The translations under genes and the position numbers were made by a program. From the NCBI GenBank assembly GCA_018712075.1, contig DVHN01000002.1, positions 7,222-71,221 on the forward strand: a stretch of DNA of 64,000 nucleotides. Direction: 5' to 3'. A model generated the notes under the pieces. The model was not told where the DNA came from. It saw only the letters and a program-made list of their open reading frames with translations, and did no database searches. Position 1 is the stretch's first letter; every line of letters begins with the position of its first letter. Origin of the DNA: Candidatus Fimimorpha faecalis. Its GTDB lineage: Bacteria > Bacillota > Clostridia > Lachnospirales > Lachnospiraceae. Positions 8,812 through 37,565 of this stretch are shown here, piece by piece.

Positions 8812-8842
8812 AGGTTTCCTCCATTATCATATTGTATTTAAA

Positions 8843-10060: not shown

Positions 10061-10091
10061 GTTTTCCTCCTAATATCATATCTGCCACATC

Positions 10092-11913: not shown

Positions 11914-11915
11914 TC

Positions 11916-12848: not shown

Positions 12849-12888
12849 AATATTCTCCTAAACAAAAAGAATAGCCTTAACCGTCTTA

Positions 12889-14709: not shown

Positions 14710-14728
14710 ATGATTACTCCCTTTTCTA

Positions 14729-16063: not shown

Positions 16064-16092
16064 TTTTTACCTTTACTCCTTTATTTCCTAAT

Positions 16093-17142: not shown

Positions 17143-17164
17143 AAGATCCTCCATTCTTTTTTTC

Positions 17165-17944
17165 TTAATCATTCCAAACCTTCCATGGCGCACAATTGGA
17201 CTGCCACATTTCTTCTAAACTTTTCTTATCTCTTTGCGTATCCATACATTTCCAGAATCCTTTATGATAATACGCCATCAACTGTCCATCTCTTGCCAGA
17301 TTTTCCAACGGTTCTTTTTCAAATACTGTTTGATCTCCTTCAATATAATCAAACACTTCTGGATTCATGACCATATATCCGCCATTAATCATACTTCCAT
17401 CTTCATCATTTTTTTCACGGAAAGATTCAATTTGTCCTTCTTCGTTAATATCAATTACTCCAAAACGCTGCCCGATATTCACCGTTGTAATCGTTGCAAT
17501 TTTCCCATGCTTTTTATGGAATTCTGCCAGAGCCCGAATATCAATATCCGCAACTCCATCTCCATATGTAAGCATAAAGGTTTCATTTCCTACATAGTCT
17601 TTAATACGCTTTACTCTTCCTCCAGTCATTGTATTGAGACCTGTATCCACCAATGTAACCTTCCATGGTTCTGAAAAATTATTATGCACAATCATTTTAT
17701 TGTTTGCAAGATCAAATGTAATATCCGATGTATGCAAAAAATAATCTGAGAAAAATTCTTTTACTAAATGTTGTTTATATCCGAGACAAATGATAAACTC
17801 ATTAAATCCATAATGAGAATATTCTTTCATAATATGCCATAAAATCGGTCTTTCTCCAATTTCAATCATTGGTTTTGGCTTTAGATGACTTTCTTCACTA
17901 ATCCTCGTTCCAAACCCACCTGCTAGTATTACAACTTTCATCAT
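17165..17944 (-). CDS. rfbF: Glucose-1-phosphate cytidylyltransferase
   Basis: 259 aa. VVILAGGFGTRISEESHLKPKPMIEIGERPILWHIMK and the C-terminal FWKCMDTQRDK block are characteristic of RfbF/DdhA. It is the first gene of the operon. Confidence 0.93.
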   Translation of the reverse strand: MMKVVILAGGFGTRISEESHLKPKPMIEIGERPILWHIMKEYSHYGFNEFIICLGYKQHLVKEFFSDYFLHTSDITFDLANNKMIVHNNFSEPWKVTLVDTGLNTMTGGRVKRIKDYVGNETFMLTYGDGVADIDIRALAEFHKKHGKIATITTVNIGQRFGVIDINEEGQIESFREKNDEDGSMINGGYMVMNPEVFDYIEGDQTVFEKEPLENLARDGQLMAYYHKGFWKCMDTQRDKKSLEEMWQSNCAPWKVWND

Positions 17945-18153: not shown

Positions 18154-19374
18154 TTATAGTAAATACTTTTCAATATCAGGAAAAACTTTCAAACTTCTTT
18201 TTAAAATTCCATGAATATAGGCTATCATAATCCCATAATTCGTAATTGGTGTCTGCTGATCCATTGCAGATTGTTGACGATATTTCATTTCCTTTTCATT
18301 TAACATACAGCCCCCACAATGCACAATCATAGCATAACTTGTCACATCTTCTGGAAATTCTGTTCCTGATGAGAAGGAAAAATTCAACTTCTTTTTTGTA
18401 TAATTCCGAATCCATGCAGGCAATTTTTCCGTTCCAATGTCTCCACATTGTCTATGATGGGTACATCCTTCCGAAATCAAAACCGTATCTCCATCTTTTA
18501 ATGTTTCAATTGCCACGGCTCCTTTCACTGCCTGTTCTAAGTTTCCCTTATGACGCGCAAATAAAATGGAAAATGAAGTAAGTAAAATATCCTCTGGAGT
18601 CATCTGAGACACTTGACCAAATGCCTGACTGTCGGTAATTACAAGTTTTGGTTTTTTACTCAGACCAGCCAGCGTTTCTTTTAGTTCTGTTGGCTGGCAG
18701 ACTACCGCAACTGCTCCAGATTCTAAAATTTCTCGAATGGTTTGCTGCTGTGGTAAAATTAATCGTCCTTTTGGAGCAGCTGCATCAATTGGAATCACTA
18801 ATACAACAAAATCTCCCCCCTCGATTAAATCTTGTACAATTGGGAAATGAGGTTTCTCTTTTCCTGCCAGACGTCCAATCATCTCTTTTAATTCATAAAT
18901 GTTTTCCTTGGTTAATGCACTAACTGCAATTTTATTTTGAATGGACGTATCCTCTTTTATTTTTTCTGTCAAATCTGCTAAATCCGATTTATTGTACACA
19001 ACAATATATGGAAGTTGTTTTTGTTCAAATAATTGAATTAATTCCCGATCTTCTGGCATAATCCCTAATTGGGCATCCACAATTAAAACAGCCACATCGG
19101 TTTTATTTAATACTTGTTTTGTACGTTTCACACGCAAACTGCCTAGTTCTCCCTCATCGTCAATGCCAGGTGTATCAATAATTACAACTGGACCAATTGG
19201 AAGCAATTCCATTGCCTTTTGCACAGGGTCAGTAGTTGTTCCCTTTGTATCTGATACAATTGCTAAATTTTGCCCCGTCACTGCATTTACTACGCTGGAC
19301 TTTCCAGCATTTCTCTTTCCAAAAAATCCAATATGAACTCGATTTCCGCTTGGAATCTGATTTAAATTTGCCAT
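18154..19374 (-). CDS. hydF: [FeFe]-hydrogenase H-cluster maturation GTPase HydF
   Basis: 406 aa. P-loop GKRNAGKSS, a DTPG motif, and the C-terminal cluster ligands CTHH...HCGGC (the CxH...HCxxC pattern). Confidence 0.92.
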   Translation of the reverse strand: MANLNQIPSGNRVHIGFFGKRNAGKSSVVNAVTGQNLAIVSDTKGTTTDPVQKAMELLPIGPVVIIDTPGIDDEGELGSLRVKRTKQVLNKTDVAVLIVDAQLGIMPEDRELIQLFEQKQLPYIVVYNKSDLADLTEKIKEDTSIQNKIAVSALTKENIYELKEMIGRLAGKEKPHFPIVQDLIEGGDFVVLVIPIDAAAPKGRLILPQQQTIREILESGAVAVVCQPTELKETLAGLSKKPKLVITDSQAFGQVSQMTPEDILLTSFSILFARHKGNLEQAVKGAVAIETLKDGDTVLISEGCTHHRQCGDIGTEKLPAWIRNYTKKKLNFSFSSGTEFPEDVTSYAMIVHCGGCMLNEKEMKYRQQSAMDQQTPITNYGIMIAYIHGILKRSLKVFPDIEKYLL

Positions 19375-19418
19375 AATATTCCTCCATTTCTTTTTTGTAT
19401 TACGCTAAAATTAAGAAA

Positions 19419-19438
19419 GGGACAGACAAGCTGTCCCC
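19419..19438 (-). terminator. Hairpin between hydG and hydF (possible partial terminator)
   Basis: GGGACAG-ACAAG-CTGTCCC. On the minus strand it is followed by TTTCTTAATTTT. Confidence 0.45.
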
Positions 19439-19450
19439 ATTGAACTTTTA

Positions 19451-20869
19451 TTAGAATCGAAAATCTCTCTCTCCATTTGCAATTTTTTCTAATCGTTCGA
19501 TTACAATTTGACGCACTTTTTCTTTTGGAATATTTTTAATTTCTTTTAAGATTAATGCGTCTCCGACTGCCTTTGTTTCTGGACGAGCATAATCTTCCAA
19601 ATATTCCTTTAACGTCATTAATGCATTTGGATGACAGCAATTTTGAATCTGTCCGCTCTTACAAAGACTCATAAAACGGTCTCCTGTACGTCCTTCTCGA
19701 TAACATGCCGTACAGAAGCTTGGAATATAGCCAAGTTCCATCAACCACTTTACTACCTCATCCAACATTCTTGTATCACTTACTTCAAACTGAGAAGAAT
19801 CTTCTTCTTCTGGTTCTACATAACCACCAACACTTGTACGAGAACCTCCACTGATCTGAGATACACCTAAATGCAGTACACGCTCTCTGCATTTTTGACT
19901 TTCTCTTGTAGAAATAATCATTCCTGTATATGGAACTGCAATACGGATACATGCGACAAGTTTTGCAAAGGTATCATCATCAATACCATTATCAAACACA
20001 TCTGGATCGATATCATCGGCACGGCGAATTCGTGGTACACTAATTGTATGAGGTCCAACTCCAAACACTGCTTCTAAATGTTCTGCGTGCATTAAAAGAC
20101 CTGCAAACTCATAACGATACAATTCCAAACCAAAGAGTACTCCAATACCAACATCATCAATGCCGCCCTGCATTGCACGATCCATTGCCTCAGTGTGATA
20201 AGCATAATTATGTTTTGGTCCTGTTGGATGTAACTTCTCATAACTTTCTTTATGATAAGTTTCCTGGAATAAGATATAAGTTCCAATTCCAGCTTCTTTT
20301 AACTTGCGATAATTTTCAACCGTAGTAGCAGCGATATTCACATTTACACGGCGAATGGCCCCATTTTTGTGTTTAATGCTATAAATTGTCTTAATGGATT
20401 CCAATACATATTCAATTGGATTATTGATTGGATCTTCTCCAGTTTCCAAAGCCAATCGTTTATGTCCCATATCCTGCAATGCAATTACTTCTTGACGAAT
20501 TTCTTCCTGTGTCAGTTTTTTACGTGGAATATGTTTATTCTTTGCATGATATGGACAGTATACGCAGCCATTGACACAATAATTGGACAAATACAATGGT
20601 GCGAACATAACAATACGGTTTCCATAAAAATCCTTTTTAATCTGTTCTGCCAAAGCATAGATCTCTTCATTTTTTTCTGGAATTTGACAGGCAAGAAGAA
20701 CCGATGCTTCTCTATGCGTTAAGCCTTTGCGCAGTTTTGCCTTTTCAATTAATGAATCAATCAATGCCTCATTTGTTTTGTTCTGATCAGCATACTCTAA
20801 TGTTTCTAAAATTTCTTCATGATTAATAAATTCCTCCGCTTTGGAGGAGGCTGGATTATAAATTGCCAT
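19451..20869 (-). CDS. hydG: [FeFe]-hydrogenase maturase HydG (radical SAM tyrosine lyase)
   Basis: 472 aa. Radical-SAM motif CVNGCVYCPY and the C-terminal auxiliary-cluster motif CTACYREGRTGDRFMSLCKSGQIQNCC. Confidence 0.93.
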   Translation of the reverse strand: MAIYNPASSKAEEFINHEEILETLEYADQNKTNEALIDSLIEKAKLRKGLTHREASVLLACQIPEKNEEIYALAEQIKKDFYGNRIVMFAPLYLSNYCVNGCVYCPYHAKNKHIPRKKLTQEEIRQEVIALQDMGHKRLALETGEDPINNPIEYVLESIKTIYSIKHKNGAIRRVNVNIAATTVENYRKLKEAGIGTYILFQETYHKESYEKLHPTGPKHNYAYHTEAMDRAMQGGIDDVGIGVLFGLELYRYEFAGLLMHAEHLEAVFGVGPHTISVPRIRRADDIDPDVFDNGIDDDTFAKLVACIRIAVPYTGMIISTRESQKCRERVLHLGVSQISGGSRTSVGGYVEPEEEDSSQFEVSDTRMLDEVVKWLMELGYIPSFCTACYREGRTGDRFMSLCKSGQIQNCCHPNALMTLKEYLEDYARPETKAVGDALILKEIKNIPKEKVRQIVIERLEKIANGERDFRF

Positions 20870-20919
20870 TGTGTTCTCCTCTCTTACAGGTCAGAACGAC
20901 TTCCCTGTCAGTTATTTTT

Positions 20920-21960
20920 TTATTTATGAATAAAATCTCCACGGCTTGTCACAACTTCATAGCCTGCTTCTTTCATTGTCTGTTTTAAATGCTGAAGGCT
21001 TTCTGCTGCTTCATCTCCTGTGCAAATTTTATTATCGTACAGTAAATATTTTTCCCTTACATCAATTGGAGATAGGTTTGGCATCACAACATTGGCTCCT
21101 GCTGCCATTCCTTTTTCTCTTCCTCTCGGATGTAACGTTCCAAGTGCAGTCGTTGCAGGTAGTAAAAGGTTTGGTATCATAATCCGAAGTAATCCCAATA
21201 ACCTCAGTGTCAATGCAACACTTCCTCCCTCCATATCTGCAAACGGAGTTTGATGATGTGGAATAAATGGTCCAATTCCTACCATATGAGGCTGAAAATT
21301 TTGAATAAACATCATATCTTCCGCTAACGTATCAACCGTTTGATACGGAGATCCTACCATAAATCCACATCCTGTTTGGAACCCAATTTCTTTTAAATTC
21401 ATCAAACATTGAATTCTATTTTCTAATGTCAATTCTTCTGGATGCAATTTGCGGTAATGATTGGTATTTGCCGTTTCATGACGAAGTAAATAGCGATCCG
21501 CTCCTGCCTCAAAAAAAGCCTCATAACTTTCTTTCTTCTTCTCTCCAATGGAAAGTGTGACTGCACAATCTGGGTAAAGTGCTTTCATGGATCGTACTAG
21601 ATGAACGATTTTTTCATCGGTATAACCTGCGTCTTCTCCTCCTTGGAGCACAAAAGTACGAAATCCTAATTCATATCCAATATCACAGCAATCCAAAATC
21701 TGACTTTCCGTTAAACGATACCGTTCCAATTTTTTATTACTTCTGCGAATTCCACAATAATAGCAATCGTTCTTGCAATAATTTGTAAACTCAATCAATC
21801 CTCGAATATAAACTCTATTTCCATAATAAAATTCTCGTTCTGCTCTTGCCTTTTCAAAAATGTATTCATCTAAAGATGAATCTTCATTCCAAATTAAACG
21901 AATCCACTCTTGCTTTTCCAGCCTTCGCTCTGCCTGTAGTTTATCGACTAACTCCCTCAT
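20920..21960 (-). CDS. hydE: [FeFe]-hydrogenase maturase HydE (radical SAM)
   Basis: 346 aa with the CKNDCYYCGIRRSN motif and a BioB-like fold. It is adjacent to hydG and hydF. Confidence 0.9.
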   Translation of the reverse strand: MRELVDKLQAERRLEKQEWIRLIWNEDSSLDEYIFEKARAEREFYYGNRVYIRGLIEFTNYCKNDCYYCGIRRSNKKLERYRLTESQILDCCDIGYELGFRTFVLQGGEDAGYTDEKIVHLVRSMKALYPDCAVTLSIGEKKKESYEAFFEAGADRYLLRHETANTNHYRKLHPEELTLENRIQCLMNLKEIGFQTGCGFMVGSPYQTVDTLAEDMMFIQNFQPHMVGIGPFIPHHQTPFADMEGGSVALTLRLLGLLRIMIPNLLLPATTALGTLHPRGREKGMAAGANVVMPNLSPIDVREKYLLYDNKICTGDEAAESLQHLKQTMKEAGYEVVTSRGDFIHK

Positions 21961-23824: not shown

Positions 23825-24973
23825 TTATTTTCCTCCTGTTTCTCCTGCTGCCATCGAAGCAAGCATATTATGTTTATACTCTTTATAACAATGTTTGTCA
23901 ATGGCTTCTCGAATTTCAGTCATTAAATTATTATAAAAATATAAATTATGAAGCACACAAAGACGCATTCCTAACATTTCTTTTGCTTTCAGTAAATGCC
24001 GAATATAGGCTCTGCTATAACTGCGGCATGCAGGACAATTACATCCTTCCTCAATTGGACGTTCATCCAATTCATACTTTGCGTTAAATAGATTTCGCTT
24101 TCCATGTTTTGTATATACATGTCCATGTCTTCCATTTCTAGATGGGTAAACACAATCAAAGAAATCTACGCCTCGATCGACTGCTTCCAAAATATTGGCT
24201 GGAGTTCCAACTCCCATCAAATAAGTTGGCTTGTTTTGCGGCAAAAATGGAACGACTGCATCTAAAATTCGATACATTTCCTCATGTGTCTCTCCAACTG
24301 CCAACCCTCCAATTGCATATCCGTCCAAATCCATATCGGTAATTCGTTTTGCATGTTCAATACGAATATCTTCAAAAATTGCTCCTTGATTAATTCCAAA
24401 CAATAATTGTTCTTTATTAATTGTATCATCCAACTGATTCAGGCGCTGCATTTCTTCTTTACAGCGTTTTAACCAACGAGCAGTACGATCTACACTTGCT
24501 TGAATATAAGAGCGTTCCGCTACCGAAGATGGGCATTCATCAAATGCCATTGCAATCGTAGAAGCTAAGTTAGACTGAATTTGCATACTTTCCTCTGGTC
24601 CCATAAAAATCTTTCTTCCATCAATATGAGAATTAAAATAAACTCCCTCTTCTTTGATTTTTCTAAGACCAGTTAAAGAAAATACTTGAAAGCCTCCTGA
24701 ATCGGTTAAAATTGGTCTGTCCCAGTTCATAAAACGATGAAGACCGCCAAGTTGCCGAATAATCTTATCACCTGGACGCACATGCAAATGATACGTATTG
24801 GATAATTCCACTTGCGTACCAATTTCTTTTAAATCCATTGTAGAAACAGCTCCTTTAATCGCCGCAACTGTTCCTACATTCATAAATACAGGGGTTTGAA
24901 TGGTGCCATGTACGGTTTCATACTCCGCACGTTTTGCCCTGCCATCCGTTGTTAAAATCGTATATTTTGCCAT
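23825..24973 (-). CDS. tgt: Queuine tRNA-ribosyltransferase
   Basis: 382 aa with TPVFMNVGT, DSGGFQ, and the zinc site CNCPACRSYSRAYIRHL. The start ATG shares one nucleotide with the secDF stop (TAATG). Confidence 0.96.
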   Translation of the reverse strand: MAKYTILTTDGRAKRAEYETVHGTIQTPVFMNVGTVAAIKGAVSTMDLKEIGTQVELSNTYHLHVRPGDKIIRQLGGLHRFMNWDRPILTDSGGFQVFSLTGLRKIKEEGVYFNSHIDGRKIFMGPEESMQIQSNLASTIAMAFDECPSSVAERSYIQASVDRTARWLKRCKEEMQRLNQLDDTINKEQLLFGINQGAIFEDIRIEHAKRITDMDLDGYAIGGLAVGETHEEMYRILDAVVPFLPQNKPTYLMGVGTPANILEAVDRGVDFFDCVYPSRNGRHGHVYTKHGKRNLFNAKYELDERPIEEGCNCPACRSYSRAYIRHLLKAKEMLGMRLCVLHNLYFYNNLMTEIREAIDKHCYKEYKHNMLASMAAGETGGK

Positions 24974-27141
24974 TATTTTTTACTCTTTTTTCCAAATTTC
25001 GTTGTGAAAACATACCAAAATGCACTTGCCAGACAAACAGAGGAGTATGTACCTGCCGTAATACCTACAATCAATGGCAATGCAAATTCTCGAATGGATG
25101 TTACACCAAGAATAAATAATACAATTACCATTATCACAGTAGTAAGAGAGGTATTAATACTTCTGGATAAAGTCTGACTAATGGAGACATTAACAATCTT
25201 CTCCAAAGGTTCTTTTTTCATTGCTTTTAAGTTTTCTCGGATACGGTCGAAAATAACAATCGTTGCATTAATCGAATATCCGACAATCGTAAGCATACAT
25301 GCAATAAATGTATTGCCCACAGACCAGCGAAATATTGCATAACATGCTAATACAACAAGTACATCGTGCATCAATGCCAAAACGGATGCTGATGCCAGAC
25401 GAATATCTTTGAATCGGAACCAGATATATAATAACATAAATACTGCTGCAATCAATACTGCTTTAATTGCAGAAGATTTCATTTCATTACTAACCGTTGC
25501 ACTAATATTTTCATTTGTAATTAACGTTTTATCTACACCAAATTTTTCTTCCAATGTATCATATAACGCTGTTCTCTGCTCCAATGTCAATTCTGGAGTT
25601 TTAAATATAACCTCATTGCTATCCTGCACTGGAGAGACTTGAATATCATTGCTTCCGATTACTTCTGCAATAACTGGATTGACTTCCTTCTCCAGACGAG
25701 ATGCATCGTAGTTTTCATTAAATGTTACGCTTGTGGATGTACCACCTTTAAAATCTTGGCTGTATGCAAGTGCGTCTCCATTGAATCCATGGTAAATCAT
25801 TGTTCCAATTCCAGCTAAAATAACAATTGCGGATAAGCAGAAGCAAAGATTCTTCTTTCCAAGGAAATTAATTACTTTAACATTTACCGTCTTTCCATAG
25901 AATTTCTCATGCTGAATTCCCAATGCATAGAACGATTTTAAAATTAACCTTGTTACGAACAAAGCAGTAATCATAGATAAGACGATACCAAGCGCCAATG
26001 TCTGAGCAAATCCTCTTACTGTACCAGAACCTAAAATATAAAGAACGGCTGCTGCAATTAATGTCGTAACATTACCATCAATAATTGCAGACAACGCCTT
26101 GGAAAATCCAGTATCAATCGCTGTTGCAACACTTCTTCCTTTTCCAATTTCCTCTCGCATACGGGCAAAAATAATAACATTCGCATCAACCGCCATACCG
26201 ATGCCAAGTATAATACCTGCAATTCCAGGCAGTGTCAAAGTAATTTCCTCTCGGAACGCACTCAACAATACTACAATTGTACCAGTATATAAAAGTAATG
26301 CCAAAGATGCAGCCAATCCTGGAATTCGATACACCACAATCATAAATACAAATACAATGGCTAAACCAATTGCACCAGCCAGTAAACTTGTCTGAACTGC
26401 TTCTTCTCCTAATTTTGCACCTACGACATTGGAGCGAAGTTCTTTTAATTCAACTGGAAGCGCACCAATACGAATCGTAGAAGCCAAGTCTTCTGCTGCC
26501 TCTAAACTTTCCATTCCGTCAATCGAACAAGTATCTCCTGTAATATGGCTTTTCACACTCGGTGCACTAATTACTTCTCCATCATAGATAATATAAATAG
26601 GAGCATTTGTTTCTACGAGTTTTGCCGTTGCCTCTGAAAAGGCTTGCTGTCCTTCTGCCGTCATTGTCAACTGTACAATATACTCTGCCGTTCCTGCCGT
26701 TGCTTCTCTTGAACCAGCCTGTGCACTTTCTATCTGGTTTCCATCCATTACCTTTGTGCCTTCTGGATCATTCATATCAGTACAAAAGATCAAAGAACCA
26801 GGCTTTCCAAGCTCTTCTAAAATTGCATTGGCATCCGTTGCTCCTGGAATATCAATCGTAATTCGATCTGCTCCTTCTCGATACACTTGAGCTTCTGTCG
26901 ATTTACTCTCCACACGTTTTTGCATTTTATTTCGTGTATCTTCCATATCCTGATCCGATGGAGTCTCTTCTCCAACTGCCTGATATGTAATACTAACACC
27001 ACCTCTTAAATCTAAGCCGAGGTTTACATCGTACACACTTCCAGACTGATCGCTTCCTAAACCAAACACTGCCGTATAAGCCATGAAAGCCATTACAAGC
27101 AATACTGCAATCAGACGAATTACTGCACTTCTTTTCTTCAT
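24973..27141 (-). CDS. secDF: Protein translocase subunit SecDF (fused)
   Basis: 722 aa. SecD-type periplasmic domain and TM bundle (LDLRGGVS..., GIGMAVDANVIIFARMREE) followed by a SecF-type half (GYSINATIVIFDRIREN). Confidence 0.93.
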   Translation of the reverse strand: MKKRSAVIRLIAVLLVMAFMAYTAVFGLGSDQSGSVYDVNLGLDLRGGVSITYQAVGEETPSDQDMEDTRNKMQKRVESKSTEAQVYREGADRITIDIPGATDANAILEELGKPGSLIFCTDMNDPEGTKVMDGNQIESAQAGSREATAGTAEYIVQLTMTAEGQQAFSEATAKLVETNAPIYIIYDGEVISAPSVKSHITGDTCSIDGMESLEAAEDLASTIRIGALPVELKELRSNVVGAKLGEEAVQTSLLAGAIGLAIVFVFMIVVYRIPGLAASLALLLYTGTIVVLLSAFREEITLTLPGIAGIILGIGMAVDANVIIFARMREEIGKGRSVATAIDTGFSKALSAIIDGNVTTLIAAAVLYILGSGTVRGFAQTLALGIVLSMITALFVTRLILKSFYALGIQHEKFYGKTVNVKVINFLGKKNLCFCLSAIVILAGIGTMIYHGFNGDALAYSQDFKGGTSTSVTFNENYDASRLEKEVNPVIAEVIGSNDIQVSPVQDSNEVIFKTPELTLEQRTALYDTLEEKFGVDKTLITNENISATVSNEMKSSAIKAVLIAAVFMLLYIWFRFKDIRLASASVLALMHDVLVVLACYAIFRWSVGNTFIACMLTIVGYSINATIVIFDRIRENLKAMKKEPLEKIVNVSISQTLSRSINTSLTTVIMVIVLFILGVTSIREFALPLIVGITAGTYSSVCLASAFWYVFTTKFGKKSKK

Positions 27142-27161
27142 TGCACTCTTCTCCTTGTTTC

Positions 27162-28565
27162 TTAGTTTTGCTCATCTGCGAGAGCTGCTTTAATCATAAT
27201 CGCACATTCAATGCGTTTTTTCTGCATTTCGCATCCAATCTCATATGCATCGGTAATAGAACCATGAAATTGATAAGAATTCGCAGCACATCCACCACTG
27301 CAATAAAACTTAGCAAAACAGTTTTGACATTTTTCCTTTGCATAGACATTACATAATTTAAACTCATTTCGACATGCTTCATTGACAATTCCATCATCCA
27401 CATTTCCGAGTAAAAACTCTTCTCGTCCAACGAACTGATGACATGGATACAGATCTCCCCATGGTGTTACTGCTAAATATTCGGTTCCAGACCCACAACC
27501 AGATAAACGTTTTGCAACACATGGTCCCTGCTCTAAATCAATCATAAAATGGAAGAAATTAAATCCTCGTCCTTCTTTCTTCCGTTTGATATATTCAACT
27601 GCCAGCTTATCATATTCCTCCATGATTACTGGAAGATCTTCCTCACGAATTGCATAAGGCTCTTCTGGTAATCCCACTACTGGTTCAATCGACATCTGTT
27701 TAAATCCCAAATCTGCAAAATGGATCACATCTTTGGAAAAATCCAAATTTTCTCTCGTAAATGTACCACGGACATAATAATTCGTCTGATTTCGACTTTC
27801 TGCAAATTTCTGGAATTTTGGAACAATTAGATCGTAACTTCCTTTTCCATTGCGGAATGGCCGCATTTTATCATTTACTTCTTTTCTTCCATCCAGGCTA
27901 AGTACAACATTGCTCATCTCTTTGTTACAAAATTCCATAACTTCATCATTCAGCAATACACCATTCGTTGTTAACGTAAAGCGAAACTTCTTATTATGAA
28001 TTTTTTCCTGAGAACGTCCATATTCCACAAGACGTTTTACGACATCCCAATTCATCAAAGGCTCTCCGCCAAAGAAGTCCACTTCCAAATTAATGCGGTT
28101 CCCCGAATTGGCAATTAAGAAATCCAATGCTTTTTTCCCAACTTCAAAGCTCATCAAAGCCCTTCTGCCATGATATTCTCCTTCTTCTGCAAAGCAATAT
28201 TTACATGCTAAATTACAATCATGTGCAATATGCAAACAGAGTGCCTTTACTACTGTTTTTCTCTGTTTAAAGTCAGTAATATAATTTCTGTAAATATCTG
28301 GAGTAAACAATAACTCCTCTTCTTTTAACGTATTTACTTCCTCCCAAGCTTCCTCAATTTCTTGTTTGGAATAACATTCTTCTAATTTTGTTACAATTTC
28401 TTGTTTTGTATTCGTTTCAAATAATGGAACGATATCATACACTACATCATCTACTACATGGACAGAGCCAGAATTGACATCTAATATAATATTATATCCA
28501 TTATTCTTATATTGATGAATCAATTTCATTCTCCCTTCTCGATTATGATGTGCATTACACATCAC
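27162..28565 (-). CDS. scfB: SCIFF radical-SAM/SPASM thioether-forming maturase
   Basis: Radical-SAM motif CNLACKYCF and a C-terminal SPASM Cys-rich region (CGSGTEYLAVTPWGDLYPCH..., CQNCFAKFYCSGGCAA). It lies directly downstream of a SCIFF precursor. The start is ambiguous: GTG 28565, ATG 28562, or an internal ATG at 28529 giving MKLIHQYKNNGYNI. Confidence 0.88.
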   Translation of the reverse strand: MMCNAHHNREGRMKLIHQYKNNGYNIILDVNSGSVHVVDDVVYDIVPLFETNTKQEIVTKLEECYSKQEIEEAWEEVNTLKEEELLFTPDIYRNYITDFKQRKTVVKALCLHIAHDCNLACKYCFAEEGEYHGRRALMSFEVGKKALDFLIANSGNRINLEVDFFGGEPLMNWDVVKRLVEYGRSQEKIHNKKFRFTLTTNGVLLNDEVMEFCNKEMSNVVLSLDGRKEVNDKMRPFRNGKGSYDLIVPKFQKFAESRNQTNYYVRGTFTRENLDFSKDVIHFADLGFKQMSIEPVVGLPEEPYAIREEDLPVIMEEYDKLAVEYIKRKKEGRGFNFFHFMIDLEQGPCVAKRLSGCGSGTEYLAVTPWGDLYPCHQFVGREEFLLGNVDDGIVNEACRNEFKLCNVYAKEKCQNCFAKFYCSGGCAANSYQFHGSITDAYEIGCEMQKKRIECAIMIKAALADEQN

Positions 28566-28874: not shown

Positions 28875-30170
28875 TTAATTTTCTGCTTCAGAAGTTCCGT
28901 CTTCTGGTATATCAAATTCAGGATGAATGGTCAATTGAATTCGATCTATTCGATTCTTTTCCACTTGAAGAACTTTAAATGTCATATTACGATAAGAGAC
29001 TTCTTCCCCTTCCTTCGGAAGACGATCTAACAACTCAATAATAAATCCTCCAAGACTATCATAATCATCTGAGTGAATATTCAGTTCCAAAATCTCATTG
29101 ATATCATCCAACTTCATAGAAGCTTCAATATTATATTGATTCTCTCCAGTTTTTTGGAAAGCTTCTATCTCATTTTCATCATACTCGTCACGGATCTCAC
29201 CGACGATTTCTTCCAGTAAATCTTCCAGCGTAATCATTCCGACTGTTGCACCATATTCGTCCAAAACAATCGTTACATTTGATGAAGTTTCTCTCATTTC
29301 CTGCAACAGTTCCAGCGTAGAACTATGTTCATAAGTAAAATGAACTTCTCTTAAATAATTCCGAATTGAGAATGGTGTCTGATGATCATAGAGCAACACA
29401 TCTTTCATATTAATTACGCCAATTACATCATCCGTGCTCTCTTCATAGACAGGAAACCTCGTAAACATATCCTCACGAAAGATCTCCAACAGTTCATTGT
29501 ATGTGGCATCTACCTGTATAAAAGTAACGTCTACACGTGGAATCATAATATCTTTTGCCTGCGAATCACCAAAATCAAATACATTGGTAATCATTTTTCG
29601 TTCATCGCTTTCCAGTACCCCTTCTTCATGGCTGACATCTACCATGGCTCGAAGTTCACTTTCTGTAATCGTTTCAGGTTTGGCATCTGGGTCCACTCTA
29701 AGCAAAAATAATACGCCCCTTGACAGTATACCAACGAGAAAAATAACAGGAGTTAACACGATCATTAATCCATGAATAAAATTATAATACATCAATGCCA
29801 GTTTATCCGCAGATATCGTAGCAAAAGACTTTGGAGTAATCTCACCAAAAATCAAAACCAATAAGGTAATCACTCCTGTAGCAATACCAGCTCCACTACT
29901 GCCTAATAACTTTGTAGCTAGTACGGTTGCAAGAGAAGATGCGGATAAATTTACTACATTATTCCCTATCAATATGGCACTCAACATCTTGTCGGTACTG
30001 TTCTCTACCATATCTAAAACTTTTCCTGCTTTTTTGTTTCCCTCATTTTCCATTGAACGTAAACGAATACGATTACATGTCATTAATGCAGTTTCCGCAG
30101 ATGAAAATATTGCCGAAAAACCAATTAAAATGAGCAACATAATCAATTGTATGACGTCACCCGAATCCAA
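28875..30170 (-). CDS. CNNM/TlyC-type hemolysin-family protein (DUF21 membrane domain + CBS pair + CorC_HlyC)
   Basis: 431 aa. N-terminal four-TM DUF21 pattern (FSSAETALM...), a CBS pair region, and a C-terminal transporter-associated domain. TTG start with SD GGAGAG. Confidence 0.85.
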   Translation of the reverse strand: MDSGDVIQLIMLLILIGFSAIFSSAETALMTCNRIRLRSMENEGNKKAGKVLDMVENSTDKMLSAILIGNNVVNLSASSLATVLATKLLGSSGAGIATGVITLLVLIFGEITPKSFATISADKLALMYYNFIHGLMIVLTPVIFLVGILSRGVLFLLRVDPDAKPETITESELRAMVDVSHEEGVLESDERKMITNVFDFGDSQAKDIMIPRVDVTFIQVDATYNELLEIFREDMFTRFPVYEESTDDVIGVINMKDVLLYDHQTPFSIRNYLREVHFTYEHSSTLELLQEMRETSSNVTIVLDEYGATVGMITLEDLLEEIVGEIRDEYDENEIEAFQKTGENQYNIEASMKLDDINEILELNIHSDDYDSLGGFIIELLDRLPKEGEEVSYRNMTFKVLQVEKNRIDRIQLTIHPEFDIPEDGTSEAEN

Positions 30171-30348: not shown

Positions 30349-33300
30349 TTAATCATCTAATATTTCCAGCTCTCTCTTATCCACTGACTTCATTTGCTTT
30401 CTTGCAAAAATATCGTACATAACTGGAATTACAAACAATGTCATGATCGTTGCATAAGTCAGACCTCCAACAGTAACAATTGCAATCGGCTGCATCATAT
30501 CGGCTCCGCTGCCGATTCCCATTGCCATTGTCATAAGTCCCAGTATTGTTGTAATTGCAGTCATTAAAATTGGACGCATACGAGTCTTTCCTGCTTCTAT
30601 AATAGCTTCTCTTCGCTCCCATCCTTCTAATCGAAGTTGATTAATATAATCTACTAATACAATACCATTATTTACAACGACTCCAGATAACATAATAAAT
30701 CCAATTGCCGCAATGACACTAATTTCATTTCCAGTCAAAAATAATCCTAAAAAACCTCCTGTAAATGCAAGTGGAATCGTAAACATAACAATAAACGGAG
30801 ATAAAAACGATTGAAATTGTGCTACCATAATAAAATAAATCATAATAACACCTAGTAACATCATCTGTATTAGCTGTTCCATTGCATCATTGATTGTTAC
30901 ATTTTCTCCAGATACTTCAATCTTGCATCCGTCTGGCGGTTCATATTCCTCCAACGCTTTATTTAAGTCTTCACTGACTAAACCAATATTGTATCCGTCT
31001 GCGATGGATGCAGAAACTGTTAATACCCGCTTTTGCTGTTCTCGATTAATGGAGGATAATGTCTCCGTTTCCTCTATTTTCGCAACATCTTTTAATGCAA
31101 TCGCTTTTGTTGTACCATCTGCCTGTGTTACAGTAAATTCATAGTTTTCCAAATCTTCTGGTGTCATAGTATTTGTTCCATCTGATACAATTGTAGAATA
31201 GGATTGACCATCCTCTTCAATATCTGTGGAAGAAGTTGGATCTGCTAACTCCGTCTTCAAATCCATATAGGCTTGCGCTACAGTTAATCCTGACTCCATT
31301 GCTTTTTCTTTATCAATAATAATACGAAGTTCTGGAATTGGATCATTGATTCCATTGGACACGTCTTCGGTTCCTTCTATATCAGCCACAATTTCTGCTA
31401 TTTCACTTGCAGCTTCTTTTAACGTATCAATCTCTTCACCAAATACTTTTATTGAAATTCCAGAACCACCCAAAGCGCTCAAATCCATATTGGACCCCGT
31501 CGCAGTTACTTCCCCGTCCAGGTCTTGACAAGCTTCTTCAATTTGAACTGCAATTTCCTGACTTGTATCGTTTCTCTTTTCCTCTAACACAACATAAAAC
31601 GTAACTGAGCGAGTATTCGTTCCCCCTCCGCTCATTAAACTATTGGAGCTCATAATTGCCCCAACGGTATTTACACCTTCAATTTCCTGAATTCGCTGTG
31701 TTACTTCGTCTGCCATGGCAGTTGTATCCTCTAATTTTGCTTCTTTTGGCATTGTCAGAGTTGCAGTTAGCTGATTACTGTCCGATTCTGGCATAAATGC
31801 AGTGCCTCTGGAAAACGATGCAGCAACGCTTCCTGCTAAAATTAATACTACGAGAACGATGACCAGCCATTTATGAATCAAACATTTCTCTACTAACTTT
31901 TCATAACGATCCAGCATCTTATCGAAAAGAACTTGTTTTTTCAAAGATGCTTTTTTTAATAAACCAACGGACATCGTTGGTACTAGCGTCAAGGCAATCA
32001 CTAAACTTGCAAGTAAGGAATATGCAATGGTTAATCCCATATCTACGAATAACTGCCTTGTAATTCCCTCTACAAATACAATTGGTAAGAAAACACAAAT
32101 CGTTGTTAATGTAGAAGAAGTAATTGCTCCTGCCACTTGGGCGGCTCCCGATACAGCTGCTTGAATTATCGTTGCTCCCTTACTTTTTAACCGATAAATA
32201 TTTTCAATTACTACAACGGAATTATCTACCAGCATTCCAACTCCAACAGCCAGACCAGAAAGCGAAATTACATTTAACGTTACCCCTGAAAAATACATTA
32301 ATACAATTGCAAAAATTACACTGACAGGGATGGAACATGCAATAATCATAGTAGGTTTGATATCCTTCAAGAATAGAATCAAAATTGCAATTGCCAACAA
32401 TCCGCCCATAATCAGATTATCCAGTACGGAATCTACAACTAAATTAATATAAACACCTTGATCCATTAGATTTGTAAAACGTAATCCTGGATATTGTTCT
32501 TCTAACTCTCGGAATGTCTGATTGAGTTGTTCCGATACCTCTGTAGTAGAATATGTATTTTGTTTTTGTATGGACAAAATCAAACTATCATTCCCATTTA
32601 CTTTTGCATAAGAAGCTGCTGAATGGTCTACATAGGAAATTTCTGCCACATCTTCTAACATAATTGGGTCAATTCCTTCTATCTTTGGATCAAATAATAG
32701 CAATTTTTTCATTTCCGAAATATCGGTAATTTTATCCCCAACTCGTACTAAGTAAGAAGTATCTCCTTCTTTCACATATCCAGCAGGCATATTAAAGTTT
32801 TGTGCCTGAAGCAGGGACCGAATCGCTTCGTTTGTGATCTTTCCATCTAGAGTCGCTTCTTCTAATGCTTTTGCTTCGGCCTCCTCCAACGCTTCTCTTT
32901 GCTCCTGTAACTGTGCTTCGGCTTCTTTCATCTGTTCATTTGCCTCATCCAGTTGCTTTTGTGCTTCCTGCTGCTGTTTTGTCAATTCTTTTTCCTGTGT
33001 ATTTAACTCATCCTGATTATCGGTAACCGTTGTTTCCCCACTTTGAATTTGTTGTCTTGCCGTATTTAATGCTTGTTTTGCCTGTTCCAACTGCGTTTTG
33101 GATAAATTTAGCTGCGCTTCAAACTGAGCCGTCACATTTTTAGAAGTGTCTACCGAAACCCTTGCACTTTCTGCTACCGATTGTTTCATCTCATAAGAAA
33201 CTTTATTTAACGCCAACTCTTGTTCCTTGGCAACTACTTCTTGTAATTGCTCTTCTAACTGACTCAGCTGTGTTAAAATGGAATCTTGCTCGGAATAATC

Positions 33301-34584
33301 TACTGATTGAACCGATTTTGCTGCCATTTTTTTAATAGGCTCATCTACTTTTTCCGTTTTCTCCTTTTTTATTTCTTCCTTTGTTGTGGACTCCTTTTCT
33401 TTTGTTTTTTCCTCTGACTCCGTTGTGGACTCTTTTGTCTGTTCTTTGGATTCCTTTGAGGTTTCTTTGGAAGTTTCTTTAGAAGGAATTTCTTCTTTCT
33501 CTGTAGCTTCTTCACTAGTACTTGGTTTTATCTCAAAACTTGGAGTTTCTAGTTCTAAATTAGTCAACTGTTCCTTTAATTCTGCAATTTGAGCTTCCAG
33601 TTGAGCCCGTTCTTGTTTTAACTCTATTTCCTTTTGCTCATTTTCTGCTTTTAATTGTGCTGCTTCCTGTTCCAACGCCACTGCCTGCGCCTCTGCCTGC
33701 GCATTCTCTTCATTCGCAGCTGCCACTGCTTTTTCCAGTTCTTTTATTACTATTTCCAATTGCTGAATTTCCGTTTCTTTTTCCTGCAATTCACTTTCCA
33801 TCTGTGCCATTTGAATTTCTGACTTCAGCAATTCTAACTTTCCACTTAACATCCCTTGACTAAAATCAATCGATCCATCTGAAAACATACTCAATTGATT
33901 ATTTAGCTCTTGTTTTCCAGTTTCCAGCTCACTTTCCGCTGCATCCAGCTGCTCTCTGGCCTCACTCATCTGTTTTTGTATTGCTTCTTTTATTTTCTCG
34001 TTGATCTGCTCAATTTTCTCTTGATCCAGCACAACTTGAATTTCCTTTTCAATATCTCCACTGATTGAAACACTTGCAACTCCGCTTACGCCTTCTAATT
34101 TGGATAACAGTTCATTATTTACAATCGAACTTAACTCTTCTGTTGATTTTTGCTCCATATCGACAGCTGCCGTTATAATTGGAAGCATATCGGGACTTAC
34201 CTTCGTAATAATCGGATTGCTAACCGACTCTGTCCAATAAGAAGACAGTAAATCCAACTTCTCTCTTGTATCAATTGTAGCAGATTCCATATTAACAGAA
34301 TCATCAAATTCCAATATAACCGTAGATTGTCCCTGCGAGGAAACAGATGTTACATTTTCAATATGGTCCAATGTTGCCATCGCCTGTTCAATTGGTTTGG
34401 TAACAATTAGTTCTACTTCTTCTGGACTTCCTCCCTCATAACTTGTTACAACAACCATATATGGAAGACTAATCTCAGGAAGTAGATCTGTAGTCATTTT
34501 CGTCCAGGACACAATCCCCAATACTAAAATCATCAACACTGCCACAATGACTGTATATGGTTTTTTCACACTATATTTCCACAT
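30349..34584 (-). CDS. RND-superfamily efflux permease (AcrB/HAE-type) with a coiled-coil insertion of about 390 aa in the first extracytoplasmic loop
   Basis: N-terminal RND block (KKPYTVIVAVLMILVLGIVSWTKMTTDLLPEISLPYMVVVTSYEGGSPEEVE), two 6-TM bundles, and a C-terminal block (MRPILMTAITTILGLMTMAMG...VIPVMYDIF). I set the start at the ATG at 34584 (MWKYSV), which has the SD GGGAG. Typical family members are about 1000-1050 aa. Confidence 0.9.
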   Translation of the reverse strand: MWKYSVKKPYTVIVAVLMILVLGIVSWTKMTTDLLPEISLPYMVVVTSYEGGSPEEVELIVTKPIEQAMATLDHIENVTSVSSQGQSTVILEFDDSVNMESATIDTREKLDLLSSYWTESVSNPIITKVSPDMLPIITAAVDMEQKSTEELSSIVNNELLSKLEGVSGVASVSISGDIEKEIQVVLDQEKIEQINEKIKEAIQKQMSEAREQLDAAESELETGKQELNNQLSMFSDGSIDFSQGMLSGKLELLKSEIQMAQMESELQEKETEIQQLEIVIKELEKAVAAANEENAQAEAQAVALEQEAAQLKAENEQKEIELKQERAQLEAQIAELKEQLTNLELETPSFEIKPSTSEEATEKEEIPSKETSKETSKESKEQTKESTTESEEKTKEKESTTKEEIKKEKTEKVDEPIKKMAAKSVQSVDYSEQDSILTQLSQLEEQLQEVVAKEQELALNKVSYEMKQSVAESARVSVDTSKNVTAQFEAQLNLSKTQLEQAKQALNTARQQIQSGETTVTDNQDELNTQEKELTKQQQEAQKQLDEANEQMKEAEAQLQEQREALEEAEAKALEEATLDGKITNEAIRSLLQAQNFNMPAGYVKEGDTSYLVRVGDKITDISEMKKLLLFDPKIEGIDPIMLEDVAEISYVDHSAASYAKVNGNDSLILSIQKQNTYSTTEVSEQLNQTFRELEEQYPGLRFTNLMDQGVYINLVVDSVLDNLIMGGLLAIAILILFLKDIKPTMIIACSIPVSVIFAIVLMYFSGVTLNVISLSGLAVGVGMLVDNSVVVIENIYRLKSKGATIIQAAVSGAAQVAGAITSSTLTTICVFLPIVFVEGITRQLFVDMGLTIAYSLLASLVIALTLVPTMSVGLLKKASLKKQVLFDKMLDRYEKLVEKCLIHKWLVIVLVVLILAGSVAASFSRGTAFMPESDSNQLTATLTMPKEAKLEDTTAMADEVTQRIQEIEGVNTVGAIMSSNSLMSGGGTNTRSVTFYVVLEEKRNDTSQEIAVQIEEACQDLDGEVTATGSNMDLSALGGSGISIKVFGEEIDTLKEAASEIAEIVADIEGTEDVSNGINDPIPELRIIIDKEKAMESGLTVAQAYMDLKTELADPTSSTDIEEDGQSYSTIVSDGTNTMTPEDLENYEFTVTQADGTTKAIALKDVAKIEETETLSSINREQQKRVLTVSASIADGYNIGLVSEDLNKALEEYEPPDGCKIEVSGENVTINDAMEQLIQMMLLGVIMIYFIMVAQFQSFLSPFIVMFTIPLAFTGGFLGLFLTGNEISVIAAIGFIMLSGVVVNNGIVLVDYINQLRLEGWERREAIIEAGKTRMRPILMTAITTILGLMTMAMGIGSGADMMQPIAIVTVGGLTYATIMTLFVIPVMYDIFARKQMKSVDKRELEILDD

Positions 34585-34617
34585 AACTTCTCCCATCCAT
34601 AAATAGAGTAAATTTCC

Positions 34618-35256
34618 CTAATTTATTTCCCTTTCACGAAGCATTGCCTCTTTTTTCGAATATACACAACCACAGAAATTTTGTCGGTATAATTGATATT
34701 CCTGCGACAACTGTATCGAACGCTTATATCCATCCTTTTTCTTAAAATCAGAATATAAATAACTTACTTGGTACTCTTGTTCTAATTTACGTCCAATTTC
34801 ATTTAGCTTTTCTGCTTTTTTTAACGGACTAATGGAAAGCGTTGTCGTAAAGTAATCAAAACCTTTTTGCTTTGCAAGGATCGCCGTCTCTCTAAGCCGA
34901 AGTTCATAACACCGAAAGCATCGCTCCCCTCCTTCTGGAATATCTTCCAACCCTTTTGACGCCTCAAAAAATCGTTCTGGCTCGTATTTTCCTACAATAC
35001 AATCTACAGGATTTTTAAAAGACATGGATGCAATCAATCTCTGCTGCTCTTTTACTCTTTTTTCAAATTCTTCTTTTGGTGAAATATTAGGATTATAATA
35101 AAATATAGTAATCGAAAAATAATTCGACAAATATTCCAGCACATAGCTGCTGCATGGAGCACAGCAACTATGAAGCAGCAATTTAGGAACAATCTGCTCT
35201 TTTTGTAATTGTTCTAATTTCCGTTCCAATTCTTTTTGATAATTTACTTTCTGCAT
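34618..35256 (-). CDS. queH: Epoxyqueuosine reductase QueH (DUF208)
   Basis: 212 aa with LLLHSCCAPCSSYVLEYL and later CxxC/C motifs (CFRCYELRL, FCGCVYS) typical of QueH. Confidence 0.88.
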   Translation of the reverse strand: MQKVNYQKELERKLEQLQKEQIVPKLLLHSCCAPCSSYVLEYLSNYFSITIFYYNPNISPKEEFEKRVKEQQRLIASMSFKNPVDCIVGKYEPERFFEASKGLEDIPEGGERCFRCYELRLRETAILAKQKGFDYFTTTLSISPLKKAEKLNEIGRKLEQEYQVSYLYSDFKKKDGYKRSIQLSQEYQLYRQNFCGCVYSKKEAMLREREIN

Positions 35257-36671: not shown

Positions 36672-37565
36672 TCAGTTTTTTTTTAAGCTTGCAATACAAA
36701 CTGCTTCTTTATGTATTACTACATCTGTATCGCAACAATCTCCTCCAAATTCACCATCTAACGTCCAACTCACTGGTTCATCACTGTGAATTTTTAGTTC
36801 TGCACATTTAAATGTTACAATATATTTTGGATCTTTTTCTTTTGATAATAAATTAGAAAGGATCATTGGAAATTCTATCGGATTTTCTGGATGTTTCACA
36901 AGCATAACTTCAAATAATCCATCGTCCATACTAACATTACTTCCGACAATCCCTTTTATTCCTCCAACACTTGTCGCATTTGAAATCATTCCAAAAAGAT
37001 AATCACCTTCTACGACTTGATCGTTATATTCCATTAACATATGAATCGGCTTAATGGTACCAATTTTTTTCATTGCTTCCAATACATATGCCTGATGACC
37101 AATTAGATTTTTTGTTTGTTGTGGTGTCATATAAGACACATCAGAAAACGCACCAAATGCTGCAACATATACAAAATATCGGTTTCCAAACTGTCCAACA
37201 TCGTATGGATTCCATTCTCCTTTCATAACGATTTCAGCTGCACGCATCACATTTTTCGGAAGTCCTATGCTTGCTCCAAAATCATTTGTGGAACCCGCTG
37301 GAATATAGCCAACTGGAGGTTTCTTTTTCAAAGTCATTAATCCAGAAACAACTTCATTTAATGTACCATCACCACCACTACAGACGATTAGATCATACTT
37401 TGAGCCTTTTTTAGCTACAATTGATGTTGCTTCTTCCTTACACTGGGTTGCCTGTATTGTAATTTCATATCCATTTTGATTGAATAAATAAATAACATCG
37501 CTTAAACGGTTTTTAATCTTTCCCTTTCCAGAAAATGGATTAAAAATAAATAGTAATTTTTTCAA
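36672..37565 (-). CDS. Diacylglycerol/lipid kinase family protein (YegS/DagK/BmrU type)
   Basis: 297 aa with FNPFSGKGK and the catalytic GGDGTLNEV motif. TTG start with SD GGGAGGA. Confidence 0.88.
   Translation of the reverse strand: MKKLLFIFNPFSGKGKIKNRLSDVIYLFNQNGYEITIQATQCKEEATSIVAKKGSKYDLIVCSGGDGTLNEVVSGLMTLKKKPPVGYIPAGSTNDFGASIGLPKNVMRAAEIVMKGEWNPYDVGQFGNRYFVYVAAFGAFSDVSYMTPQQTKNLIGHQAYVLEAMKKIGTIKPIHMLMEYNDQVVEGDYLFGMISNATSVGGIKGIVGSNVSMDDGLFEVMLVKHPENPIEFPMILSNLLSKEKDPKYIVTFKCAELKIHSDEPVSWTLDGEFGGDCCDTDVVIHKEAVCIASLKKN

Follow-up and report, generated by a model that had tools for sequence, protein, structure and literature searches.

A predicted antiparallel helical hairpin inserted in the funnel domain of an AcrB-type RND permease from gut Clostridia

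The window analysed here is a 64,000-nucleotide stretch of contig DVHN01000002.1 from Candidatus Fimimorpha faecalis. Its reverse strand encodes an AcrB-type resistance-nodulation-division (RND) permease, and the gene lies between those of queH and a CNNM membrane protein (Table 1). Inside its first extracytoplasmic loop, the permease carries an insert of ~390 amino acid residues (aa 196–586, window positions about 32839–34011). The insert is very likely a long antiparallel α-helical hairpin, with the helix pairing and direction predicted from structure models and residue patterns. This hairpin-bearing AcrB-type pump is a real, widespread and apparently undescribed architecture.

By its sequence and its predicted fold, the permease is a member of the ACR_tran family. 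The Pfam profile (PF00873) matches it at E=1.9e-208 with 695 bits against a cut-off of 28, in two stretches flanking the insert. The match is interrupted at profile positions 196/197 by ~390 extra residues, and its second stretch pairs query 586–1397 with profile 197–1020, reaching position 1020 of 1021. In the alignment with MdtB (PDB 9lyq), query 11–195 and 587–1401 correspond to residues 18–203 and 208–1026, respectively. From the two-part Pfam and MdtB alignments, therefore, the ~390 residues are extra and sit at a single point of an otherwise complete permease. A preliminary description of this DNA had recognised AcrB-type ends around about 390 surplus residues in the docking region of the first loop, and the coordinates agree with it.

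The PDB sequence matches of the permease are MdtB, ZneA, AcrB and MexB. With the NCBIfam model RND_permease_2 the score is 608 bits, short of the strict cut-off of 1250 set for that subfamily. The MMPL family (PF03176) gives 42.8 bits over the C-terminal transmembrane bundle only, compared with the 695 bits of ACR_tran. A Foldseek search with the AlphaFold2 model of aa 1–900 returns cores of the AcrB type only, among them AcrB, AdeJ and MdtB at E of ~1e-20, with a TM-score of ~0.5 that is normalised by a query including the insert.

That model contains the first transmembrane helix (TM1, residues 13–33), the β/α porter modules, a strand at 184–190 immediately ahead of the first long helix, and the helices of TM2–TM7 at 713–899. 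Beyond the insert, the DN helix 589–600 bears the invariant AQNF.MPAGY motif, and a segment of the AcrB inter-protomer DN loop is kept at about query 601–625. The insertion point at profile 196/197 corresponds to about residues 193–198 of AcrB and MexB, and query 588 to MexB 199. In the model it falls between the strand 184–190 and the helix 589–600, which make the first strand–helix junction of the DN docking (funnel) subdomain.

AcrB-type RND pumps work as trimers and their substrates exit via the funnel domain. DN is located in the distal 30-Å funnel (docking) domain, which gathers exported drugs (PMC8277102). Therefore, the insertion is on the exit side of the pump.

The anatomy of the insert was modelled by two AlphaFold2 runs, on aa 1–900 and on aa 150–660, with a 72-sequence alignment, and both models are monomers. 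The first model has a mean pLDDT (predicted local distance difference test score) of 74 and places helices at 192–240, 251–348, 435–530 and 540–581, followed by the DN helix, while 349–434 is disordered with pLDDT of 25–39. The second model has unbroken helices at 192–349 (pLDDT 84–97) and 434–581 (pLDDT 91–96), with aa 351–433 disordered. Both ends of the insert adjoin in the DN fold, so the chain must run out and return. The arms of 158 and 148 residues would each extend ~22 nm if straight, at ~0.148 nm per residue.

The low-confidence helix breaks of the first model are in register across the arms, leaving 49 and 42 residues on the proximal side and 98 and 96 on the distal side. They would fit paired antiparallel helices with a possible hinge, which is uncertain because the second model shows none. 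Two aspects of the models limit their weight: their predicted template modelling scores (pTM) are low, 0.47–0.48, and they disagree on the hinge at aa 241–250 and 531–539.

Heptad periodicity was compared with 2000 composition-preserving shuffles. It stands out in arm 1 (z=3.5, p=0.0025) and arm 2 (z=4.2, p=0.0015) and is absent in the tip linker by the same shuffle-controlled test. Across 72 homologues, both arms conserve Leu or Ile at each seventh residue (position a) and Ala or Gly at +3 (position d), and the conserved pattern of arm 2 reads G..QL..AK.QI...K.QI..GK..L. This heptad pattern is of the 'Alacoil' type, which allows close antiparallel packing. Conservation falls symmetrically from the base, from 2.0–3.0 bits over the first ~90 residues of each arm to 1.3–1.6 bits in the distal arms. 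The tip is almost unalignable, at 0.47 bits and an occupancy of 0.27.

Arm 1 consists mainly of Glu (21%), Gln (14%), Ala (13%) and Leu (11%), arm 2 of Glu (17%), Gln (17%), Ala (12%) and Leu (11%), and the tip linker of Glu (26%), Lys (20%), Thr (13%) and Ser (13%). The insert has no Cys and about 2% Met. Both arms are strongly acidic, arm 1 with a net charge of −21 and arm 2 with one of −17, and the family mean is −0.09 per residue.

The preliminary description had proposed two heptad-rich stretches of ~150 residues each (aa 197–345 and 435–585), dominated by Glu, Gln, Lys, Ala and Leu, joined by a Ser/Thr/Glu/Lys linker and spanning ~22 nm. The modelled helices, the shuffle test, the composition and the predicted disorder of the linker all bear this out. 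The monomer models predict two long helices and not a globular or fully disordered segment.

Structural likeness to other proteins is weak. The best PDB matches of the hairpin fragment in Foldseek are Rad50 and Smc at a non-significant E of 0.3–0.7, and the longest alignments are to the intramolecular antiparallel coiled coils of these two. Among PDB sequences, the sole match of the insert is Smc at E=0.057.

Table 1. Positions of the permease gene, its parts and its neighbours in the window
Feature	Position	Strand	Basis
AcrB-type RND permease gene, 1415 aa, whole open reading frame (ORF) including stop codon	30349..34596	-	ORF list, translation, Pfam, PDB sequence matches, Foldseek
aa 1–191: TM1, PN1, part of PN2 and first DN strand (184–190), ending at the insertion point	34024..34596	-	MdtB alignment, AlphaFold2
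Arm 1, aa 192–349, 158 residues, predicted outgoing helix	33550..34023	-	AlphaFold2, heptads, conservation
Hairpin tip, aa 350–433, 84 residues, predicted disordered Glu/Lys/Thr/Ser-rich low-complexity loop	33298..33549	-	pLDDT, composition
Imperfect 33-bp and 12-bp tandem DNA repeats in the tip-loop coding region (KETS/KES repeats)	33396..33485	.	Tandem Repeats Finder
Arm 2, aa 434–581, 148 residues, predicted returning helix	32854..33297	-	AlphaFold2, heptads, conserved pattern
aa 582–1415: remaining DN, PN2, TM2–TM12 and second extracytoplasmic loop	30349..32853	-	Pfam profile 197–1020, MdtB 208–1026
Codon of Asp791 in TM4, motif GMLVDNSVVVIEN, candidate proton-relay carboxylate	32224..32226	-	Alignment to MdtB 'VDDAIVVIEN'
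queH, upstream neighbour (context only)	34618..35256	-	Pfam QueH, E=3e-73
CNNM/CBS/CorC_HlyC membrane protein, downstream neighbour (context only)	28875..30170	-	Pfam CNNM, E=2.2e-53

The transmembrane part has its own deviations from AcrB. The TM4 pair D791–N792 is invariant in the 72 homologues, so that the second Asp of the AcrB 'DD' is Asn. In the TM10 motif 'VNNGIVLVDY', near aa 1300, an Asn equally invariant in the 72 homologues replaces the AcrB Lys, while the Asp of 'LVDY' is conserved and the TM11 Arg is conserved within 'RMRPILMT'. A variant proton relay, unlike that of AcrB, is plausible in this Firmicute clade from these motifs. At the N-terminus, the annotated start MGEVMWKYSVKK (34585–34596) lies 4 residues beyond the family consensus start MLSKFSVKK, and the true start may be Met5, at 34584.

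The insert is a lineage-wide trait of Firmicute RND pumps, located at one fixed site and freely variable in length. All of the 120 best homologues carry it and are 1276–1521 aa long. Its length is 250–504 aa across the 72 aligned homologues, and the profile is split at the same place in four diverse members. The 94%-identical homologue from the isolate genome of Clostridiales bacterium CHKCI001 is annotated as 'Swarming motility protein SwrC', and the other insert-bearing hosts include Oliverpabstia, Anaeromicropila populeti, Lachnospiraceae bacterium KM106-2 and Eubacterium ramulus. The insert of 391 aa here compares with one of 393 aa in the 94%-identical homologue and one of 385 aa in the 88%-identical homologue.

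A wider survey used the post-insert core as query against 1.84 billion cluster representatives, and both flanks were then located in each match. In every one of 129 representatives, the start of the insert is at about residue 192, and the length varies continuously over 2–686 aa. The main mode is 200–350 aa, so the insert in the window is long but not extreme. Genuine short forms have 12, 23, 42, 62, 88 or 100 extra residues. The helical and heptad-phased character is kept in more than 100 clusters at 50% identity.

The tip is more changeable. It is absent in P0025, P0028 and P0029 and rich in Pro, Thr, Glu and Ala elsewhere, as in the PETPAAAPETP repeats of P0095. The tandem repeats in the tip-coding DNA suggest slippage-driven variation of tip length between strains. 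The longest inserts, those of P0155, P0177, P0191 and P0199 (538–686 aa), share a non-helical motif in arm 2, 'GI(I/L)PGG.(I/V)EG(I/M)DEDT', and have Pro/Thr/Ala-rich tips except in P0191. This motif, absent from the window protein, may be a knob or a binding site.

Low-complexity inserts are fragile in assemblies. P0138 had looked like an insert-less relative, but a stretch of N within the coiled coil breaks its gene into ORFs of 269 and 1026 aa (L011:803-4637). Protein length alone thus misclassifies, and therefore the N-termini and both flanks were checked. By the same token, an assembly chimera or a frameshift might be suspected behind the insert of the window, as low-complexity repeats can break assemblies. 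Against it, the reading frame is uninterrupted, the protein belongs to a 99%-identical cluster of 315 member sequences, the CHKCI001 protein is 94% identical, and hundreds of homologues have an insert at the same site. The chance of an artefact is negligible and misassembly was rejected.

The helical hairpins of adaptors and TolC were considered as a source of the insert. The best Pfam match of the insert is the helical part of OEP (TolC family) to aa 195–280, at 17.6 bits and E=0.0035, which is below the cut-off of 22. This signal recurs in one of seven other inserts, that of the 70%-identical closest relative L002. Moreover, the OEP profile also matches a genuine hairpin of a membrane fusion protein (MFP), so the signal is a generic one of efflux proteins or coiled coils.

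A local hidden Markov model of the insert scored the MFP hairpin of L014 at 14.5 bits and OEP at 13 bits, with heavy compositional bias, and ranked both above ~1000 background ORF fragments. No lipoyl or barrel domain of an adaptor is found in the insert. These sub-threshold, biased and seldom recurring matches count as a lead at most. By these comparisons, the insert is probably not a captured adaptor or TolC hairpin.

The surroundings of the gene were searched for partners. The preliminary description had named queH and a CNNM gene as the flanks and noted no adaptor or outer-membrane factor gene nearby, and Pfam confirms the flanks. No MFP/HlyD or OEP family member was found in the window by Pfam (31/44 ORFs of at least 150 aa), and tblastn with two Firmicute MFPs and one OEP as queries gave nothing across the whole window. 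Pfam and tblastn likewise found no MFP or OEP gene in the insert-bearing loci L001–L010, which make seven independent contexts. No MmpS-like small gene was recognised beside the pump in the window or among the CHKCI001 neighbours, and an Rfam scan of the window had no matches.

The insert-bearing genes lie in unrelated housekeeping neighbourhoods. The order queH–RND–CNNM is found in the window and CHKCI001, SpoU–RND–NfeD in L006 and L008, Amidase_2–RND–PRC in L009, and others in L003–L005. A TetR gene directly adjoins the pump in L003, L004, L008, L011, L017 and L018, followed by a MATE pump in L004. Such adjacent TetR genes would fit a role in efflux of toxic compounds or drugs.

Clostridia (Bacillota) are a single-membrane group, and the closest genome is that of Clostridiales bacterium CHKCI001 (Bacillota, Clostridia). 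From the gene contexts, with the single membrane taken from group knowledge, the pump is a stand-alone AcrB-type efflux permease of Lachnospiraceae-like Clostridia.

The closest insert-less relatives found are P0258, P0263 and P0269, with 37–39% identity over the core and ~4 residues at the site. In all three, an MFP lipoprotein gene is immediately upstream, and P0263 has also an OEP gene and SLH-domain neighbours. This contrast between relatives would weakly support that the hairpin replaced an adaptor.

Two MFP–RND operons formed by insert-less relatives were seen in different surroundings. One (L014:4862-10462) is accompanied by an OEP gene and by neighbours with SLH domains, so that a host with two membranes is possible. 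The other (L015:4702-9138) has a MarR gene upstream and the sporulation gene YunB nearby, so its host is probably a single-membrane spore former that still keeps the MFP lipoprotein.

Several observations concern the rest of the window. A gene of the diacylglycerol kinase family (DAGK_cat/YegS_C; 36672-37565, reverse strand) lies two genes upstream of the RND gene and is present also in CHKCI001. In B. subtilis, dgkB is reported next downstream of swrC (bioRxiv 10.64898/2026.08.10.744025). That the RND and DAGK genes lie so close may be chance, or it may reflect a conserved tie to the metabolism of lipids or lipoteichoic acid.

On either side of this region are the queuosine genes tgt and queH (23825-28565 and 34618-35256), and secDF and a radical-SAM/SPASM gene lie between the two. 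This tgt–queH block, otherwise of housekeeping character, also contains the RND and CNNM genes. A trio resembling [FeFe]-hydrogenase maturation genes occupies 18154-21960 (reverse strand) and consists of HydF (a GTPase that has HydF dimer and tetramer domains), a radical-SAM protein bearing a BATS domain (HydG/HydE-like) and a second radical-SAM protein.

A cell-surface glycopolymer cluster at 6979-17944 (reverse strand) adjoins rpoB (2951-6805). It encodes a GT87/EpsG-like membrane protein, LicD, GT2, two epimerase/dehydratases, a TPP-dependent enzyme, a DegT aminotransferase and a nucleotidyltransferase. Its ORF at 8843-10060 has no Pfam match.

How the hairpin might serve the pump can be pictured as follows. 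The pump is taken as a trimer with the funnel as its exit, and therefore three hairpins would rise from the exit face of the funnel. Joined about the three-fold axis, they would make a helical stalk, and the pump's exit side would thereby reach into or across the peptidoglycan zone, ~22 nm past the ~7-nm headpiece. The unstructured tips would lie in the wall, and the stalk would work like the coiled-coil tube of mycobacterial MmpL4, MmpL5 and MmpL10.

Low-complexity sequences rich in Pro, Thr, Glu and Ala are typical of the wall-spanning regions of Gram-positive surface proteins. The tips of this kind in the relatives, with their PETPAAAPETP repeats, count for a tip placed in the wall zone. 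A projecting trimeric stalk of some kind has roughly even odds of being right.

Some findings weigh against this stalk. The continuous spread of insert lengths, 2–686 aa, speaks against a docking assembly built to exact dimensions. Relatives with 12-, 23-, 88- and 100-aa inserts are also without an adjacent MFP gene, so stand-alone operation does not depend on the long hairpin and the hairpin is not simply an adaptor substitute. The earlier suggestion that the adaptor function has been fused into the pump is not sustained, given these relatives and the insignificant homology of the insert to MFP or TolC.

Whether such a stalk is hollow or solid is a separate matter. As a closed exit duct, it would prolong the funnel as a hollow barrel of six helices, inside which substrates would cross the peptidoglycan as proposed for MmpL5. 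Another RND family provides a precedent (PMC12501195, PMC12183618), the insertion is in the funnel subdomain where substrates leave (PMC8277102), the conserved small Ala and Gly in the proximal 90 residues of both arms permit close helix packing, and adaptor or channel genes were not found nearby. However, one large hydrophobic and one small residue are conserved per heptad, making a single hydrophobic seam per helix. Such a core would fit a tight two-helix hairpin of the Alacoil type better than a six-helix barrel, which needs a second seam. Moreover, the arms show no conserved lumen-lining stripe, Met-lined or other, unlike MmpL5, and Met is scarce. The high negative charge of the arms would disfavour tight bundling without counter-ions, the three 84-residue disordered tips would crowd the exit, and the wide range of lengths also speaks against a duct, which we consider unlikely. 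Its evolutionary version is just as unlikely, namely that single-membrane Clostridia independently evolved a length-tunable six-helix exit duct by convergence with MmpL, with the insert length tracking wall thickness and with adaptor and channel made unnecessary. As a solid stalk, clamp or spacer, on the other hand, non-conducting hairpins would stabilise the trimer and/or form a rigid, acidic, wall-anchored spacer, a possibility that we hold tentatively. With the same reserve, its purpose might be to hold wall polymers off the exit funnel or to set the pump position relative to the wall. The Alacoil-like two-helix core, the variable tips resembling wall-spanning sequences and the freely variable length are consistent with it, strong acidity would repel anionic wall polymers, and the coiled coil of MmpL10 drives oligomerisation (PMC12183618). 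On the other side, AcrB-type pumps trimerise via the DN inter-protomer loop, which is apparently kept here (query 588–619 for MexB/AcrB 199–236). Insert-less and short-insert stand-alone relatives exist as well, so the stalk is dispensable for basic function.

The hairpin might instead be a docking arm like that of MFPs, one that recruits a protein of the wall or a secreted protein, or else a TolC-like helical protein whose gene is elsewhere in the genome. The single-membrane C. difficile is reported to have AcrA-like and TolC-like genes beside an RND gene (PMC11170357), and both the sub-threshold likeness to efflux hairpins and the conserved proximal 90 residues would suit such an arm. Yet no conserved partner gene accompanies the pump in the seven contexts, the OEP signal is generic and seldom recurs, and the tip is the least conserved part, although MFPs and MmpL5 have a conserved interaction surface there. 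A docking arm is therefore quite improbable. Still less probable is a neutral low-complexity expansion at a permissive surface loop, lacking any specific function. The length continuum, the poorly conserved distal arms and tip, and the tandem repeats in the tip DNA would be expected of it, but not the heptad-phased helices that persist at 50% identity, the conserved Leu and Gly/Ala in the proximal 90 residues of both arms or the near-equal lengths that the arms maintain. Besides, 300–400 extra residues per subunit are costly.

How substrates leave RND pumps for the space beyond the wall is poorly understood in bacteria that have no outer membrane, and the MmpL coiled coil (2025) is the only characterised built-in extension of an RND pump. 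Here, a second and unrelated RND lineage, AcrB-type and abundant in gut Lachnospiraceae, has an insert of 2–686 residues at a fixed site of the funnel domain. This suggests convergent evolution of pump-borne stalks. The lineage also offers a natural length series for telling the duct, spacer and clamp roles of hairpins apart. These efflux pumps of gut commensals, some beside TetR genes, make up a class that has gone unstudied and may matter for drug and bile tolerance.

Among the known systems, AcrAB–TolC and MexAB–OprM (HAE-1) share with the window pump a homologous permease fold, with porter and funnel domains, and the idea of a helical conduit above the funnel. Their conduit is built from separate proteins, six MFP hairpins and TolC, whereas the helices here are within the permease. 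AcrB differs further by 'DD' in TM4 and 'K' in TM10, compared with 'DN' and 'N' here. The insert-less P0258, P0263 and P0269 and the C. difficile CD630_24070 locus share the DN and TM motifs, but insert-less relatives differ: the site has ~4 residues, an MFP gene is directly upstream, and L014 has an OEP gene as well.

B. subtilis SwrC (YerP) and S. aureus FemT are of ordinary length, about 1050–1065 aa, and are not known to have the hairpin. They share the Pfam family of the window pump and likewise are single-membrane Firmicute pumps that stand alone, without MFP or outer-membrane factor. Their predicted structures are described as closely like the Gram-negative pumps, with no such extension mentioned (bioRxiv 10.64898/2026.08.10.744025). 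Their substrates (surfactin; a proposed role in lipid homeostasis) are not transferable to the window pump. Our literature searches turned up no Firmicute AcrB-type pump described as bearing a coiled-coil insert, although coverage was incomplete and a prior description is possible.

The preliminary description had known of no characterised pump with a built-in helical extension, and this point has to be revised. MmpL4, MmpL5 and MmpL10 have a built-in antiparallel coiled-coil domain, which is modelled as a trimeric six-helix tube needed for efflux and, in an M. smegmatis homologue, is reported resolved as such by cryo-electron microscopy (PMC12501195, PMC11850643, PMC12183618). In MmpL5, an antiparallel coiled-coil insertion of 196 aa is modelled as a ~13-nm trimeric six-helix tube lined with Met and is essential for efflux (PMC12501195). 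In MmpL10, the coiled coil drives trimerisation (PMC12183618). Like them, the window pump is an RND permease with a long antiparallel hairpin in its extracytoplasmic domain, here predicted to be directed from the membrane towards the wall, and no TolC-type partner is encoded nearby.

The differences are also many. These MmpLs belong to another RND family (HAE-2, 'cluster I' MmpLs) than ACR_tran, and the MmpL5 insertion is in PD2 of loop 2 and not in DN of loop 1. The insert here, ~390 aa, is about twice as long as the 196 aa of MmpL5. The MmpL5 tip is compact, disulfide-bonded and hydrophobic, whereas the 84-aa tip here is predicted to be disordered, is charged and has no Cys. Neither the Met-lined pattern nor the MmpS partner of the MmpLs is seen here, and the mycobacterial mycomembrane contrasts with a single-membrane host.

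In summary, judged by its sequence, the window pump is not of the MmpL family, not part of a tripartite system and not a demonstrable adaptor fusion. Its closest characterised analogue is the MmpL4/5/10 coiled-coil tube (2025), an analogy that spans a different family, a different loop and a different envelope.

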